A DNA stretch of 56,342 bases, filler included, from Mitosporidium daphniae (Eukaryota), in assembly GCF_000760515.2 (NCBI RefSeq). It is 2 parts of 2 records of this genome, joined end to end, with 100 filler letters (N's around TTAATTAATTAA, not from the genome) between each part and the next. Parts side by side here need not be neighbours in the genome. Positions count along the whole stretch, not along the records: positions 1 to 28,248 come from NW_013546163.1; 1 more part is not named here. One strand, 5' to 3'. Position numbers and translations under genes: made by a program. Under the pieces are notes generated by a model. It was not told where the DNA came from, searched no databases, and was given only the letters and a program-made list of their open reading frames with translations. Shown here piece after piece: positions 5,871 through 51,876 of this stretch. Numbering within the stretch: position 1 is the stretch's first letter; every line of letters starts with the position of its first letter.

Positions 5871-6022
5871 TAGCAACGTAAGTGTCAAACCATATGGAAG
5901 AATTGTAAAAAATTAAGGCAAAAAGTAAATTTTATTGGGCCGCAAATTCAATATAACCCGGTCTCCTCATATGACACGTGAGTCATGATACGCAGTGCGT
6001 CATTCATCTAGAAATAAGCAAG

Positions 6023-6097
6023 TATTTCAGAATATGCCAGCAGGCGGTTGAACCATGAATTGCTCTTAAGACCGTCGTGATAATAGTCATCATAATT
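6023..6097 (-). ncRNA. snR73: Box C/D snoRNA, snR73/SNORD35-like (LSU Cm2959, yeast numbering)
   Basis: C box ATGATGA 6093-6087 and D box CTGA 6030-6027. 12-nt antisense to LSU AGACCGUCGUGA (6069-6080). The +5 rule from a degenerate D' (AAGA) hits the C of AGAC. Confidence 0.8.
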
Positions 6098-6253
6098 GTA
6101 CTCACCTTTTACAAATGTACATGCACGGCTGGCAGTTCCGGAGAAACTCAGCTGACAGGCTCAATTGATATTTTGTGAGCTGGCTAAAGCACTCTCAAAG
6201 GAGATTATGCGATATGGGAAACGGTCTATTTTGCAAAGTATGAGGATTGCCTA

Positions 6254-6328
6254 AGTCTCAGCAAAAATACAACATCATGGAAATGAATCAGACATATGCT
6301 TGTCTCTTATTTTTTTCGTCATCAACTT
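6254..6328 (-). ncRNA. snR74: Box C/D snoRNA, snR74/SNORD27-like (18S Am28)
   Basis: C TGATGA 6324-6319, D' CTGA 6291-6288, C' ATGATGT, D CTGA 6261-6258. 14-nt antisense to 18S 5' end CAUAUGCUUGUCUC; +5 position is A28. Confidence 0.9.
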
Positions 6329-6368
6329 ACTAAAAGTAAGAAAGCTAGAAAGAAGGGATAATAGTTGT

Positions 6369-6444
6369 TTTGTCAGACAGCATGAATGGATATTGTGTTA
6401 TTTCATCATCATGAAATATGGCTCGTCATCTTGTCATCATTCAA
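6369..6444 (-). ncRNA. snR75: Box C/D snoRNA, snR75-like (LSU Gm2288)
   Basis: C ATGATGA 6440-6434 and D CTGA 6376-6373. Antisense to LSU CUCGUCAUCU (6422-6431; +5 is G from a degenerate D' CATA). A second 12-nt match to neighbouring LSU GCAUGAAUGGAU lies at 6380-6391. Confidence 0.85.
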
Positions 6445-6543
6445 ATGTGAAGAAAGAAACTTACCTTTAATTAGTAGCACACTACATAAGAACTGCTTGT
6501 GATGATGGGTTCCCAAAAGCTAACCCCAGGCAATTCTAAAATA

Positions 6544-6611
6544 AGACTCGGCCAAAAAGTATCATCAAATGAAATATCAGCACCCAGTGCTCAATTGTTG
6601 TACATCATTGT
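6544..6611 (-). ncRNA. snR76: Box C/D snoRNA, snR76/SNORD88-like (LSU Cm2197)
   Basis: C ATGATGT 6608-6602, D' CTGA 6580-6577, C' TGATGA 6567-6562, probable D CCGA 6551-6548. Antisense to LSU CCCAGUGCUC (6583-6592); +5 is C. Confidence 0.8.
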
Positions 6612-6656
6612 CTTACCTATAAGTAAGATGATGATGATGAGAATGGAAAATGATCG

Positions 6657-6737
6657 TATGTCAGAATAGCCGCAAAATTTCATCACTAATCAGCCGGTAA
6701 TTCCAGCGTATAACGTATGATAGCAATCATCATTCAC
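6657..6737 (-). ncRNA. snR77: Box C/D snoRNA, snR77/SNORD65-like (18S Um578)
   Basis: C ATGATGA 6733-6727, D' CTGA 6693-6690, C' GTGATGA, D CTGA 6664-6661. 13-nt antisense to 18S CGGUAAUUCCAGC; +5 is the U of GGU. Confidence 0.9.
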
Positions 6738-6784
6738 ACGAGAAAACGGGTAGGATTCATACCTAAGCATAAGGAAATGCAATC

Positions 6785-6858
6785 AAAGTCAGAATATAAA
6801 TGAAAATCACTAGATTCAGATACTCTAGTCCGAATATATATAGTTGTGCATCACTCCT
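6785..6858 (-). ncRNA. snR78: Box C/D snoRNA, snR78/SNORD52-like (LSU Um2421)
   Basis: C GTGATGC 6854-6848, D' CTGA 6819-6816, D CTGA 6792-6789. Antisense to LSU ACUCUAGU(CCGA) at 6822-6833; +5 is the U of GACU. Confidence 0.8.
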
Positions 6859-7101
6859 TGAATGATTCCTACCTTTGGTTTGATAAAAAATTAGTAATCT
6901 ACAACTCTTACATTAAAAATACCAGGGTCCTCACACAATGCTTAATTTAAATTTAAAATTTTAAAGTTTGATTGGTTTGGGGATGTTCCATTTTGAAATT
7001 TTTTTGATATTGCAATGCCCCAATTGGGTTAGTTATCCTCGAATAATATGCCGTTTTACTTTATTTAACCTTTTCCTTTCTAGTCACGCATAATTAAAGA
7101 A

Positions 7102-11833: not shown

Positions 11834-12975
11834 ATGCCTTTGACTGTGATGGACGTTTACTGTGCAGGAATCTTAAATGATTCTAACTCTTGTTACTTTA
11901 ATAGCATCTTGCAGGTGAGGTTTCCACTTTTCTCTCAAGTTCCTAGCATCTTCGCCTTCGCTACGCGAATTCCTCAACATCCTACTCAGAGCCGAATCAA
12001 CAGCATGCGTGCCCGCGCTGTTGGACTTTCTTTCAAGTAAAAAATCTCTTTCTCTTTTACTTTCTAGAACTAGACCCGTCACCGCATCAGCAGACTCCTC
12101 TTTTCCCATTATATCTAAAAAGGCTTTTTTCTATCGATAGGAACTATGCACAGCAGGTTGTCTAATAGCATTTTTGCTCTTTTTTGTATGTTCATTTTTT
12201 CGATTTGACATCGTTTATTTTTATCGCTTTTGCATTCGTTTATCTCCAGGACTCGCACGAATTTCTGGTATGCCTTCTAACATCGCTTGGCCAAATTTAC
12301 GATAATATGCTGCCCGCAATACGAGCAGCGACTCCGCTTCTTTTCAAAGTATTCATTAATTTCGATCCAGTAGCAACTACCATTTACTTGGCTCGCTTCA
12401 TCGTACATCTTTTGCAAAAATTGCTCGCATGCTGTAAGTCACTTGTCAATTACTCCATTTCCATTTTACTATTTCCATGACGTTTAATTTTTTTGTCACA
12501 GGGCGCATTTAGGGCGGAAATGGAAAACATTGTCCCTGTCTATGTGACAGAGTTGACAGAGGCAATGAGCCTCTCCGAAATTCTGGAACAGGGAATTCTG
12601 AAGCCTTCTGTTGCATCGCTTGACGGGGCATGGCGATGCGATAAATGCGGCGCTCATGGTTGCGGTTATCGATATACAAAGTTTCTACGGCCACTAGGCA
12701 AGGGATTAATCGTTCACATTAACAGGATTTATCAATTTGAGAGAAAAAGCGATCAAAAGATAAAGATCTCAAAAAAGATTCACGTCCGAAACTCAGTTCT
12801 TTCCCTTCGTGCAGTGGTGGAGCATATTGGAAACTCTTTAGGCGGACATTATATCTGCTATCGTCGACTTGCAAACGGTCGGTGGGCAATGACCTCCGAT
12901 GCCACTGTCAAGTATATGCGTGGTCCACCCTCATCGCTGGAACCGTATCTTCTTCTATATGAACCTGTAGCTTAA
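11834..12975 (+). CDS. Ubiquitin-specific protease (peptidase C19), multi-exon
   Basis: Cys box GILNDSNSCYFNSILQ; QQ|DSHEFL; His box LRAVVEHIGNSLGGHYICYRR...SDATV...YLLLYE. Confidence 0.88.
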
Positions 12976-13813: not shown

Positions 13814-15638
13814 CTACTTCATAGGCGGTGGTGGTACGGCTCTTATTGTTTCGTCGACAGAGAGAATAAGAGTAGCAGCCTCCGTGGCCGCAGAAATCAT
13901 GTTTTCCTTGACGATAGTCGGCTCCCAAACAAATTCTTCCTTGAGATTGGCCACCAGGTCGCCGCCACTGGCAGCTAAGTTGACGCCATAGAAGCGTCCG
14001 CTGTAGGGTATCGGCGTGGTTTCTGCGGTGGGGCTTTCGGGCTGCGCGTGCCGCTTGCGGAGCAATGCTAAAACATCGACTGCATCGATGCCAGCATTAT
14101 AGCAGAGCTGCCGGGGGATGACCTCAAGTGCACGAGCATAGGCTTGCACTACACGTTGCAGACGTGAAGGGATAGCACGAGCAGCCTCTCGAAGAATCCT
14201 TGAGAGTGCCATTTCCGTGGCACCACCGCCAACAGAAAGGCGACGGTGGCGCAGCGCGCGCTGAACCACCATTAAAGCATCATGCAATGAGCGCTCTACC
14301 TCTGCAATAAATTGATCAGAGCCACCGCGCAGTAGAAACGTTGAGATGGCACTTTCATTGGCAAACCCGGAAAAAAAGTTGAAACGCTCAGCACCAACCT
14401 GGCGCTCTTCAAATATAGCACAATGGCCAACGGCAGCCTCCAAAGGCTCCCCGGCGGCTACTGTCGAAACAACGGGAACAACCAAAGCTTTACTCAACCT
14501 CTGGAGGTCTTCCATTGGCACACGACCAGCGGAAAAAAGACCACGATCGGCAAAATATTGCGTGGCAACGTCTCCAATGGGAAGTCTTGAGAGGACAACG
14601 GTGGCGCCGACTTCCACAATCCGTTCAAGTTTTTGGTGTAGTATTGTCCACTCTCCTTCAACTATCGCAGCATAGTCAGCGACACCCGCGATGCGTAGCT
14701 CGGCATTGTCACGTTCAGCCTTGAGCTCCAACTCTACATTAAGAAGCAACACACGGGGATCATCGATGCGCTTTGGTTGCTGCTCGTGACCCGCATAGGA
14801 AAAGGTCTTCTTGAAAGCGATTCCATTTACCAGAACAGAGTCCTCCATCGAGCCTCCCGGAATTCGCTTTATACCAGCGTCGCGCGATGAAGTATGCCAC
14901 GAGGGCTGTTGATTAGTAGAAGGTTGCTCTCGAGACTCATTGTTTATCTCTCTTCCAAGCTCATAATCGACCACTAGACGTGCAAAGTGCGTTTGGGCAC
15001 TCCGGATAATTTTCGAGTTCATTGAGGTGGAAGCGATGCGTTCCAGCATCTTCCGGTCGTTGTTATGCAGAGGAAAGACCAGACTTGCAAGGCTATCTTC
15101 ATCTACAAGGGCCTGTTGTGCCAGGGTAGCCGCCATACGAAAACCTCGGATGATGGCCCGTGGTGCCATTCCATCCTCGACAAGTGTTCGGGCCTCCGCC
15201 AAAAGCTCACCTGCAAGCAGTACAACCGAGGTCGTGCCATCACCGACCTAAAATTTCGAGTCGATGCTTACCTCTGCGTCTTGCGCACGCGCAATGTCAA
15301 CTAACGAGCGAGCTGCCGGATGAACGACGTCCAGCAGTTTCATGATTGTCGCTCCGTCGTTGGAGATAACCGCTTTTCCTAAAAATGAACACAAATCTCT
15401 GATACCTAAAATAATTGGTGCTAATGGTACACAAACCTTTCGAATCGACGATCAATTTATCCGAACCAGAGGGTCCCAACGTTGTGCGCAAAATATCGAC
15501 CACAGCCAGTGCAGCGGTGATGTTGGAAAGTAGCTGAGCCTTTCCTTGGCTCGTATCTGTACCGTCCTTCAGTAGTATCACTTGCGGATTCTATGGTAAA
15601 ACATAGCTAGCCCCTACCATCATCATCTGCATTGGCAT
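13814..15638 (-). CDS. CCT7: Chaperonin CCT/TRiC subunit eta, multi-exon
   Basis: [70 protein letters not shown]. Confidence 0.96.
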
Positions 15639-15759: not shown

Positions 15760-16913
15760 ATGCCTGCGGCCCAGACCCTGCTGGACGTCGCCATCATTGT
15801 CGGCATATGCCTTTCTTATACACCACAGGTGTGTATTACCATTTCTTTTCTAGTTTAAAAAAATAGTCCGCATGGGTAGTAGCTATGGACTGCATCCACT
15901 TTCCGTACTGCTTGGTCTGCTCTCTCTCACTTGTACACTTGCAAACAATCTTATTATGCGCCTTCCTTTTTTACTAGGGTGCCTTTCAATGGTATGAAGT
16001 TGAACCAAGTTTATTTCAGAACTCCATCTGGACATGCGTTGGGGCGCTCCTTCCCTTCTTTCAAGTAGTCATGCAGTTTATAATGGCGCTCATATTGTAA
16101 GTGGTAAGACTGATTCTCTACGTAGGGCTATCGTTTACTGTTGCTATTTTCCAGTAGAAAAAAAGACCGTTCCTACGCTTATCGATCTGAATACTTTTTA
16201 CCCGATGGGGATTAATGCTCATTATATGGGCGCCAGTCCTCGCACTAAAGACGGCGCCACAGTTCCCAGCTTTTACGGATCATTTTCTGAACAGGGATGC
16301 TTTCGCGATTTTAATTCCTGCCGCCAACATACACATCGTAAAGTTTCTGCCGAATGGCGTCAAATACAACGCTATATTAAAATCTCTGGGGGCATCTTTT
16401 TTTTTCTGTCTCTATCCATTGGGGGGCTTCTTGCTCTCCTTGGCGAGAGGCATTTTGTTGTACGTCTATATGGGACGTCGCTAGGTGTAATTTCTATGAT
16501 TCTGGCAATCTGGCAGTACATTCCTCAAATTATGGCCGTCTGGCACAACTCTGCCATCGGTTCGCTTAGTATCTCGGCGATGCTAATCCAAGTACCAGGT
16601 ATTTATTGAAATTTTTATTTCTCCCACCCCTTTTTTGATTTCCATTTATTTGCCAGGATCAATTTTGCTTCTTGCTTGCCAGATGCTGGATAAGCACTCC
16701 CATTTTTCTTCATGGTTGGGGTACCTCTGCTCCTCTATTTTACAGCTTGTCCTGCTGTTAACATGCATCCAATCTAAAAGATACGAGCTTAGACCTTTGA
16801 CAGCCTGTCACGATCCATTTGCTGAAGACGAGACTGGCGCTACCCAGAGGCCAGCCCTTGTAAAAAGCCTTCGCGATGAGCTTTTTCCCTTGCTCTCGCC
16901 CACGATTGCGTAA
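15760..16913 (+). CDS. PQ-loop repeat membrane transporter, multi-exon
   Basis: First motif CLSYTPQ, second WQYIPQIMAVW...GSLSISAMLIQVPG; several hydrophobic helices. Confidence 0.8.
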
Positions 16914-18937: not shown

Positions 18938-20259
18938 ATGGAAAAGCCCCTTGAAATGTGTTTTTAATTTTTGAAGTGCATGACCCAAAAGCCTGCTTTG
19001 CATTACAAGAAGCTGAACGAAATTAACGATTGGATTTCAAAAGGCCTATCCACTGCAAAGAGCTCCACTTTGTGTCTATCTGGGCCATCTGGCACTGGAA
19101 AAAGATTTGTTCTCCAATATTTGTCTCATATTGTTGGGTTTACTTTGCAAAAAAATTTCATTTCCTCAATGGCTTTTAGAAGGACTTTATACACCAGAAT
19201 CTAACGCAAATGCAATCGGGTCCTTTTTGCAGTCTATTTTTCTATTTTCCTCTTCCAATGCTATCAACTTTGGACCGCCAGATGAAATCGATGATAGCCA
19301 TCCTATTGCAGCCAAGGCCGGGAAAATTTTCGTGATTGACGATTTTCCTTTTCACGTTGAAACCGCCATTCGCTGCTTGTTTTCGTTTTTAGGTGGTTCA
19401 TTTTTTGTTAAAAGCCAAGCATTTACCATTATTCTCGTTTATACGGAAATAAATTTCAAGGAAGACCGCATGTTCTTTGAGTACTGCTCGAAAGCAAATT
19501 TCGCTGTCATTAAGATGTCGCCCATTCCTGCTAGTTATATTGAAAGGGTGCTCAACATCAAATTTAGCCGTTCCAATGTCAAGCGCAATGTCTGCACAAA
19601 GAGCAACTTGATTAAGGAAATTTCGCATTCTAGTAATGGGGATATAAGAATGGCTCTAAACGCCTTTGATTTTTGGTGTTTATTGCCTAGCTTTGAAGAC
19701 CTGGAATATGTTGCCGATAGATTCTTCCGCTCACATAAGACACTTTATCACATTCTAGCATATCTATTCTTTGGCTTAAATGGCCCCACTGGCGGTATCA
19801 CTTCTGACTCAAACAAATGGCAGTCTTTTGTCAAGTATTACCACCACTCTAGGCGATACGTATCTTCTGATAACATTCTAGCTTGGATTTGGGAAAATGC
19901 TCCCCTATTTTTAAGCACCGATTCGATTTCGTTTCTTCATGTCCTTTTAGAGGCAGCTTCTGATTGTTCATTTGTATTTGATTGCTTTCAAGTACCCTTT
20001 TATGCAATTAACAATTTAGGACAGCCGAGACATCGATGATGTCGCTCAAACGATACTACTGCTACCGGCTTCTTTTTTATTAGGACAAAGACCTGGGCCG
20101 CAAGCCTTTTTCTTCCCCAAAGAATTATCTAATTTTGTCACTCCTCGGATTTTCTTTCATTCAGATCGCACTAGGAATTTCCACACATCCTCAACTGATA
20201 CAGAAACAGCCCACGGCGTGCCCAATGTTAGCGCAAATGATTACCATCTCCTTTCATAA
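18938..20259 (+). CDS. Rad17/Rad24-like checkpoint clamp loader (divergent AAA+); start uncertain
   Basis: ALHYKKLNEINDWI...LSGPSGTGK; IFVIDDFP; SNGDIRMALN; last exon 20020-20259 follows a small intron. Confidence 0.65.
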
Positions 20260-25935: not shown

Positions 25936-27397
25936 ATGCTCCGCAAAAAGGTTGATGTCATCATCTTTGGTGCTACCGGATTTACAGGAAAATTCGTGCT
26001 TGAGGAGTTCCATCGCTACGCTTCCTTGCCGTTGAAAGATGCATCTACTGGTAAAGCTGTACCTACCTTTGCCGCTGCTGGGAGAAGTGAACAAAAGCTC
26101 AAAGGTTTTCTTGCTTTTGCATATGTTTGCTGTAGAACTAACTCTTGGTATTGATGCAAATATCCCGATCATCGTTGCCAATATTGAAGACAAGGAATCT
26201 CTTGAAAAAATGGCGGCTATGTGTCGTGTTCTAATTAATTGTGTGGGGCCTGTAAGCTTATTTTCGATGATGTCTAGTTTCGATTTTATGGCAAGTCTGT
26301 AATAGAGGCCTGCATCTCTATGAAATGCAACTATGTCGATATTAGCGGTGAACCTCAAGTATTTTTTACCTTTTATTTTCTAGTTTATGGAAGAGTGTTT
26401 GATCTTGTATAATGACCTCGCCATTAAGAGCAATGTATCGATTATCTCTGCGTGTGGATTTGATTCCATTCCAGCCGATATTGGGGTCTTTTTCACGTTG
26501 AAGAACATTCTGAAAGAAAAAAGTAGGAAACCCCTTTCAGTGGAATCTTTTATTGAGGTGGAGAATTCTATGGGAATGCCGGTGAAGGGGCATTTCACCA
26601 GCTTCGAATCGGCTGTACATGGTTTCTCAAGCCACGAAAATCTAAATGACTTGCGTCAGAGAGTTCCTTCTTTTGATAAAAAGATCCCCGACTCCACCAC
26701 AATAGGCGGCGAAACATTCCAGAGAAAACGATGGCCTTTTTACGAAGATCGAATTGGAAAGTGGTGTGTCCCATTTCCTGGCTCAGATCCATCAATTGTT
26801 CTTATAATTATGTGATCATTCTAGGTTCGTCGCTCGATTTCTGCTCTTGTTGCCCAGAATTACACATGCAACTTTCCATATGCTGCCTACTTTGCCGTAA
26901 ATTCATTTTACTCGCTAGTTGGGCTTGTGCTTTTTTCTAGCATCTTTTATTTGTTGACTAGATTTCAATGGGGTAAATCTTTGCTGTTGAAGGTTACATT
27001 TACTTGTGCTTTCTCCATAGTATCCGTCTTTTTTTACGGGAGGAGTCTTTTCTCATGAAGGTCCAACTCGCGGTGAAATCGATACTACCCGTTTCAGCAT
27101 CAAATTTTATGGCTCCTCCGTTTTGGAGGATGGAAGTGAGCCAAAAACATTTCGTGCAGTTCTTACGGGGCCTGGTTGTGGAGCCTTTGCTAATTACTAG
27201 AACCAGGATATAGAGCTACGCCAGCCTGCATCACGCTTGCAGCAATGACGATCCTTGAAGAAGAGGTAACTGTCTGTAATTAATGCGCCTAGCACAATAT
27301 CCCAAAGGGCGTTATTACCCCAGTAACTGCATTTAAAGATACCAGCTTTATTGAGAGGTTCCAGAGCAGTAGTTTAACGTTGCGGATGGACGAATAG
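25936..27397 (+). CDS. Saccharopine dehydrogenase-like oxidoreductase (SCCPDH type), many small introns
   Basis: IIFGATGFTG; AAAGRS; INCVGP; YVDISGEP; SACGFDSIPADIG; PKGVITP. Confidence 0.88.
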
Positions 27398-28248: not shown

Positions 28249-28348
28249 NNNNNNNNNNNNNNNNNNNNNNNNNNNNNNNNNNNNNNNNNNNNTTAATTAA
28301 TTAANNNNNNNNNNNNNNNNNNNNNNNNNNNNNNNNNNNNNNNNNNNN
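28249..28348. other. Assembly spacer: N-run with TTAATTAATTAA six-frame stop linker
   Basis: 100-nt N44-TTAATTAATTAA-N44 block; the genes on both sides are truncated. Confidence 0.9.
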
Positions 28349-28525
28349 TCTGACACCTGGGATTCATGTTCTGACACCTGGGATTCATGTTCTGACACCT
28401 GGGATTCATGCTCTGACACATGGAATTCTTCGTTATCAACGGATTCGTGCTCAGTATTGACATCTTGGTCTTGTTCGTTCGGACCGGCTTGATCTTGTTC
28501 TTTTGGGCCGGCTTGATCTTGTTCC
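28349..28525 (-). repeat. Coding 21-bp tandem repeats (SEHESQV and EQDQAGP heptads) in PMT
   Basis: TCTGACACCTGGGATTCATGT x3+ running into the gap, plus EQDQAGP-type units. Confidence 0.85.
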
Positions 28526-51664: not shown

Positions 51665-51807
51665 AGTGCATTAATACGGTGCATTGACAAAGTGCATTAA
51701 TACGCTGCATTGACAAAGTGCATTAATACGCGGCATTAATAGAGGGCATCAATACGCTGCATTAACAGAGGGCATCAATACGCTGCATTAACAGAGGGCA
51801 TCAATAG
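51665..51807. repeat. 26-bp tandem repeat (dimer of 13-mers) x5.5
   Basis: AGTGCATTAATACGSTGCATTGACAA grading into AGGGCATCAATACGCTGCATTAACAG. Confidence 0.9.
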
Positions 51808-51876
51808 AGTGGCACAGGCAGTACATGTTGCAGTACATTACATGGATGCAGACTAAAGTTTAGCGATAAAATCTGA

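Follow-up and report, generated by a model that had tools for sequence, protein, structure and literature searches.

Ratchet points break up introns many kilobases long and often come with a cryptic exon. Recursive splicing at such points has been described for long introns of Drosophila and vertebrates (PMC8605326, PMC2773006, PMC4482092). In fungi, juxtaposed exonless introns have been described in snoRNA host genes of the Candida clade, Debaryomyces and Yarrowia (PMC3596301, PMC5033589), and the 336-nt SPNCRNA.445 of S. pombe is presented as a snoRNA host of the same kind (bioRxiv 10.1101/226894). In the accounts given by these three sources, the juxtaposed introns are backed by RT-PCR or sequencing. 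Stwintrons, another fungal arrangement, are nested, the inner intron lying in or next to the donor, branch site or acceptor of the outer one (PMC6616335, PMC7138796), and abutting introns are listed as a type separate from them (PMC6616335).

The 58-nt interruption of the CCT7 gene of Mitosporidium daphniae shares with ratchet points an AG/GT joint at which a donor would be regenerated after the first splice. Ratchet points, however, lie in very long introns, whereas the CCT7 interruption is just 58 nt long, each half being of modal size. As in fungal snoRNA hosts, a 5′ splice site comes immediately after a 3′ splice site, with complete U2 units open to stepwise removal, apparent conservation across species and a fungal lineage. 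These hosts are nevertheless non-coding, their introns carry snoRNA and RNA evidence is available, in contrast to CCT7, which is coding, has units of 27–31 nt without cargo and is known from DNA. Like a stwintron, it would place two short U2 units at a single site in a coding gene and take two reactions to excise; for some stwintrons a one-step alternative exists. Unlike in stwintrons, the units lie end to end, each with its signals uninterrupted by the other. Zero-nucleotide exons have precedents in fungal snoRNA hosts and at ratchet points of the fly, and the CCT7 twin would represent a new variant, as yet unproven. No report of such splicing was found in the open-access literature for Mitosporidium or Rozella.

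The CCT7 gene and its 58-nt interruption

The window, that is the whole 56-kb stretch of Mitosporidium daphniae DNA analysed here, carries the CCT7 gene on its minus strand, with the following features.

13814..15638, minus strand: CCT7 (T-complex protein 1 subunit eta) gene, assigned by its exon 4
15638-15618, minus strand: exon 1 (gene model)
15591..15617, minus strand: intron 1, a single 27-nt mini-intron (gene model, in agreement with P0001 and P0121)
15437..15590, minus strand: exon 2 (matches P0001 and P0121; 46 of 48 compared residues identical to the relative P0246)
15406..15436, minus strand: intron 2 unit 1, a 31-nt GT-AG mini-intron in phase 1 (sequence; removed in P0121)
15379..15405, minus strand: intron 2 unit 2, a candidate 27-nt GT-AG mini-intron (splice scores, low GC, register in P0246)
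15405..15406, minus strand: internal AG/GT joint between units 1 and 2, the putative 0-nt exon (sequence, scores, L-G-M of the relative)
15272..15378, minus strand: exon 3, 107 nt (35 of 35 residues identical to P0246)
15248..15271, minus strand: intron 3, a single 24-nt mini-intron (gene model; 26 nt deduced in the relative)
15247-13814, minus strand: exon 4 (100% identity with P0001, which its sources call CCT-eta of Mitosporidium daphniae)

Intron 2 covers minus-strand positions 15436-15379 (58 nt, GT..AG). The layout proposed in an earlier note on this DNA is confirmed by the sequence: TTTTAG/GTATCA at 15406/15405 splits the 58-mer into 31 and 27 nt, so that a 3′ splice site abuts a 5′ splice site. 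Both units are complete, and taking out either leaves the other intact. Since no differences were listed over these 58 nt in five of five DNA runs from two studies, the layout is not an assembly error; the interruption and its 31 + 27 nt split are real. Branch-site candidates in the two units are only degenerate (CCAAT, TTCAT) and YTRAY is present in neither; among the 53 short introns of the window, only 21 have YTRAY. An origin of the twin by duplication of one unit was rejected, 241 of 1378 unrelated intron pairs aligning equally well; the units are not detectably related.

Unit 1 holds the donor of intron 2 and its retention shifts the frame. The CCT7 frame is likewise shifted when unit 2 alone, or nothing, is removed. 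The claim that protein continuity requires removal of all 58 nt was not confirmed: if only unit 1 is excised, the frame stays open and gains nine residues (unit 2 is a multiple of three and has no stop), and this is exactly what the public model P0121 contains. The two public models differ at the site: P0001 takes a farther acceptor and loses two residues, while P0121 keeps unit 2 as exon. A P0121-type model was also the output of the gene finder used here, which forbids adjacent introns, so the P0121 annotation alone is not evidence. The twin would explain this annotation trap, in which models of –2 and +9 residues disagree, since gene finders barring 0-nt exons cannot yield the conserved CCT7 protein.

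We examined 124 homologous proteins, of which 113 carry both anchor motifs. The spacing obtained after removal of the full 58 nt equals the hairpin spacing in 107 of these 113, and leaves no gap relative to the human chain. The acceptor of unit 2 is at the position common to other eukaryotes. The six exceptions comprise both public models of the gene, two naturally occurring variants (+2 and +4) and two cases of apparent intron retention. The position of intron 2 is old: among 364 fetched proteins, 63 start in non-homologous sequence just ahead of one shared glycine, and in several an insert is read through at that point. The starts of P0003 and P0127 (8 and 7 codons before the junction, respectively), considered as marks of the unit 2 donor, were uninformative: such starts span 2–40 codons over 63 ORFs. 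A metagenome scan returned nine loci; eight were inspected, all from distant fungi that have no intron at this position of CCT7. A viral scan gave no match. In the AlphaFold model of P0121 (mean pLDDT 84.4), the hairpin strands 50–53 and 68–71 are kept and the insert forms a low-confidence loop. The predicted structure, compatible with a nine-residue insert, does not separate the splicing models.

Splice signals and the introns of the window

All statistics cover the 56-kb window, not the whole genome. Hand curation of the introns drew on family motifs, Pfam matches, continuity of the reading frame and a simple gene finder. Sixty were curated first and 59 remained after one, a 42-nt RAD17 'intron', was dropped as a reference error: an A run at window position 19149 has a base that is missing from five of five DNA runs, and the RAD17-like frame is open without it, so that the window likely carries a homopolymer error here. 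Scores in bits were derived from position weight matrices of the window introns, short introns being scored leave-one-out. Unit scores and exonic decoys rely on the 59-intron model; shuffle nulls, branch motif, GC, twin scan and the score of the 58-mer on the 60-intron model.

Among the 59 curated introns, 53 measure 23–35 nt and six 58–110 nt, with a median of 29 nt for all. A spliced contig confirms just one of the 59, the mini-intron predicted at 26993-27020 (plus strand), whose 28 bases are precisely those missing from a contig of run X1. Run X1, the one RNA-like run, contains spliced transcripts of Mitosporidium daphniae, and none of its contigs lies over the CCT7 interruption. The 31 and 27 nt of the CCT7 units fit the short class, as had been proposed, the curated range being 23–35 nt instead of 23–33. 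AAG acceptors and one GAG acceptor are present in the set. Two further candidate introns with AAG acceptors, both of 30 nt (a multiple of three) and stop-free, were read through by the gene finder, at 53170-53141 (minus strand) in a ubiquitin-conjugating enzyme gene and at 18002-17973 (minus strand) in a PQ-loop gene.

In 57 of the 59 introns, the acceptor used is the first AG from position 20 onwards. Internal AGs at positions 20–40 occur once per 560 positions (a value partly circular for short introns) and once per 126 in the six long ones. The CCT7 58-mer has three within this interval, at 31, 38 and 40. Internal AGs are skipped in two of the six single introns of 58–110 nt. None of these six long coding-gene introns has an AG/GT, in agreement with the earlier note, and long introns of the window are therefore apparently removed whole. 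The broader suggestion that zero-length exons may be a general device in protein-coding genes finds no support in this count, and within the window they are not such a device. The longest coding-gene intron found in the window, 110 nt in the GDI gene (5324-5215, minus strand), skips three internal AGs and has no Rfam match. At its position 30, behind a run of T, the 93-nt USP intron (12157-12249, plus strand) has a strong donor-like GTATGT with no AG ahead of it; this is possibly a decayed joint.

Unit 1 scores 8.5 bits (donor 3.4, acceptor 5.1), above 45 of the 53 short introns. Unit 2 totals 9.2 bits (donor 2.9, acceptor 6.4), above 47 of 53, a score which is not independent evidence since its acceptor would serve one-step removal too. 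Both units outscore all 612 GT..AG decoys drawn from 22.5 kb of exon (decoy maximum 5.4 bits). Taken alone, the unit 2 donor is mid-range, exceeding 31 of 53 short introns and equalled by 13 of 929 exonic GTs. The GC content of unit 2 is 30% compared to 53% in exon 4, and is below that of all 1404 exon 4 windows. As one intron, the complete 58-mer scores 9.9 bits.

We further estimated how often such a joint would arise by chance. For one intron of this size, a plain YAG/GT leaving halves of 23–35 nt appeared in 1.0–7.7% of 100,000 shuffles or draws, depending on which of four nulls was used. A joint as strong as that of CCT7 was obtained in 0.12–0.31% under the four nulls (again 100,000 shuffles or draws). 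Acceptors directly followed by GT are common, being found in eight of the 59 curated introns; a comparable downstream unit was found at none of the eight other acceptors of this type in the window. Over both strands of the window, the CCT7 twin is the sole one in which both units exceed 6 bits, and 60 shuffles gave none.

A diverged relative and the alternatives to a probable two-step removal

A relative is available through P0002 (76% identical) and P0246, each on a contig of 72,054 nt, taken as one. P0246 is a read-through ORF, which crosses the CCT7 interruption at the corresponding site by 19 codons (57 nt). Its flanks are nearly invariant (46/48 and 35/35 residues identical), whereas just two of eight residues are shared in unit 2. 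At the nucleotide level, at least 10 of 24 nt of unit 2 are changed between the window and P0246, eight of them in the four middle codons. The one internal glycine of P0246 lies in L-G-M at 30 + 27, compared with L-G-I at 31 + 27 in the window, the bases of the relative being deduced from its residues. A [LIV]-G-[IM] at the joint codon was found in 0.06% of 200,000 simulated stop-free introns; under the null, an L-G read-through corresponds to AG/GT in only 554 of 3000 cases. In the tail of P0246, where exon 4 is read off-frame, 13 of 22 positions differ, indicating that neutral divergence is high. Judged from one relative and at the peptide level, the twin arrangement has likely been kept while its middle diverged, and we regard the twin mini-intron as probably conserved.

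Taken together, these observations lead us to consider it fairly probable that the 58 nt are two abutting U2 mini-introns separated by a 0-nt exon and removed in two steps. Support for two abutting introns comes from the register of the joint, conserved across species, and from the splice-signal scores. The idea of two fused mini-introns, already put forward in the earlier note, thus remains the best reading; what that note missed is a competing one, also in frame, in which a 31-nt intron is followed by 27 retained nucleotides. A trivial origin, i.e. an ordinary 58-nt intron whose internal AG/GT arose by chance and has no role, is very improbable. A plain YAG/GT does turn up in 1–8% of the shuffles, and several long introns were inspected, but so strong a joint is far rarer in the simulations above, and its register is kept in a diverged relative; the P0246 comparison nearly removes this model.

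The same comparison splits two-step removal from a coding insert less sharply, because unit 2 is 27 nt, a multiple of three and stop-free in both the window and the relative. Its length is constant while unit 1 (30 nt in the relative, 31 nt here) and intron 3 (an implied 26 nt against 24 nt) vary, a pattern that an insert also fits. Only the 31-nt unit would then be intronic, the 27 nt being an exonised intron tail that encodes, in the manner of P0121, a constitutive nine-residue insert at the hairpin tip of the CCT7 stem-loop. Consistently, both hairpin strands are kept in the AlphaFold model of P0121, other loop insertions exist in CCT7 of this lineage, and natural variants of +2 and +4 residues are known. 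We nevertheless find such an insert quite unlikely. The stretch is more intron-like than 612 of 612 exonic decoys and its GC is below every exon 4 window, an intron-likeness which would have lasted through high neutral divergence; its residues have diverged between near-identical flanks, and the annotation of P0121 need not reflect RNA.

One-step removal is possible given the six single introns of 58–110 nt in the window, two of which skip internal AGs. It would involve one donor (15436) and two acceptors, mostly with a single 58-nt splice and with a minor +9 form produced through the proximal AG, the internal GT being unused. The 9.9-bit score of the whole 58-mer is in line with such a scheme, and the same alternative is raised for juxtaposed snoRNA introns in the account of PMC3596301. 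However, it would have to skip routinely a TTTTAG at modal distance, against the first-AG pattern of 57 of 59 introns. Moreover, it leaves unexplained the retention of G-[I/M] (GT-AT) in the relative, and the product of proximal splicing would still contain a top-ranking 27-nt intron. We thus hold the one-donor scheme to be unlikely.

What the sequence shows is the layout, the strength of the four splice sites and the conserved hairpin regained on full removal; the RNA-level steps of two-step removal are inferred and could be as follows. The spliceosome would join every donor to the first good AG that it meets at about 23–35 nt. If unit 1 leaves first, exon 2 would be joined to unit 2 in an in-frame intermediate that still contains a strong 27-nt intron; if unit 2 leaves first, unit 1 would remain with its 3′ end intact. 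Either order would produce the identical mRNA. Incomplete splicing could give a +9-residue CCT7 escaping nonsense-mediated decay, since unit 2 is a multiple of three and stop-free. Splicing of short introns averages less than 20% in Encephalitozoon cuniculi, according to the figure given in PMC6349667, which makes some retention of unit 2 plausible. A single ancestral intron, at an old position, is the likely source of the twin, which would predate the split from the relative. A wider proposal, that abutting mini-introns of modal size are an inherited splicing mode of rozellid (Rozella, Mitosporidium) coding genes and that unit 2 of CCT7 is kept as a +9 retention switch invisible to nonsense-mediated decay, is tentative and rather doubtful.

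If confirmed, the CCT7 twin would bring recursive splicing near its smallest possible scale, with two rounds of spliceosome action inside 58 bases of an essential protein-coding gene and a layout kept between species. Zero-length exons would then not be confined to giant animal introns or snoRNA hosts. The twin also provides a test of how size-based intron definition treats introns that touch each other.

The snoRNA host and other features of the window

A second locus of the window bears on the abutting introns.

6008..6873, minus strand: snoRNA cluster host (snR78, snR77, snR75, SNORD27-like; Rfam matches, all below gathering score)

This snR78-snR72-type cluster (6873-6008) occupies consecutive introns of a non-coding host. 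AG/GT joints are located at 6763/6762, 6617/6616 and 6465/6464; two are strong and the third has an AAG acceptor, and an overlapping AG/GT is found at about 6330. The parallel drawn earlier with this host stands as far as the joints are concerned, which are real, but the arrangement is one already known from fungi. Joints between snoRNA-bearing introns of the same window count in favour of abutting introns in CCT7.

Beside CCT7, two PQ-loop genes face each other, at 15872-16913 (plus strand) and about 18140-17197 (minus strand). In the second, a homopolymer base before a donor (window 17734) is absent in runs X2, X5 and X6 and present in X3 and X4, representing either a frameshift polymorphism or a contig error. 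Two contigs are joined by an N-filled stretch at 28250-28349, which includes a short spacer motif. Short tandem repeats are located at about 1095-1190, 28350-28420 and 51690-51810.
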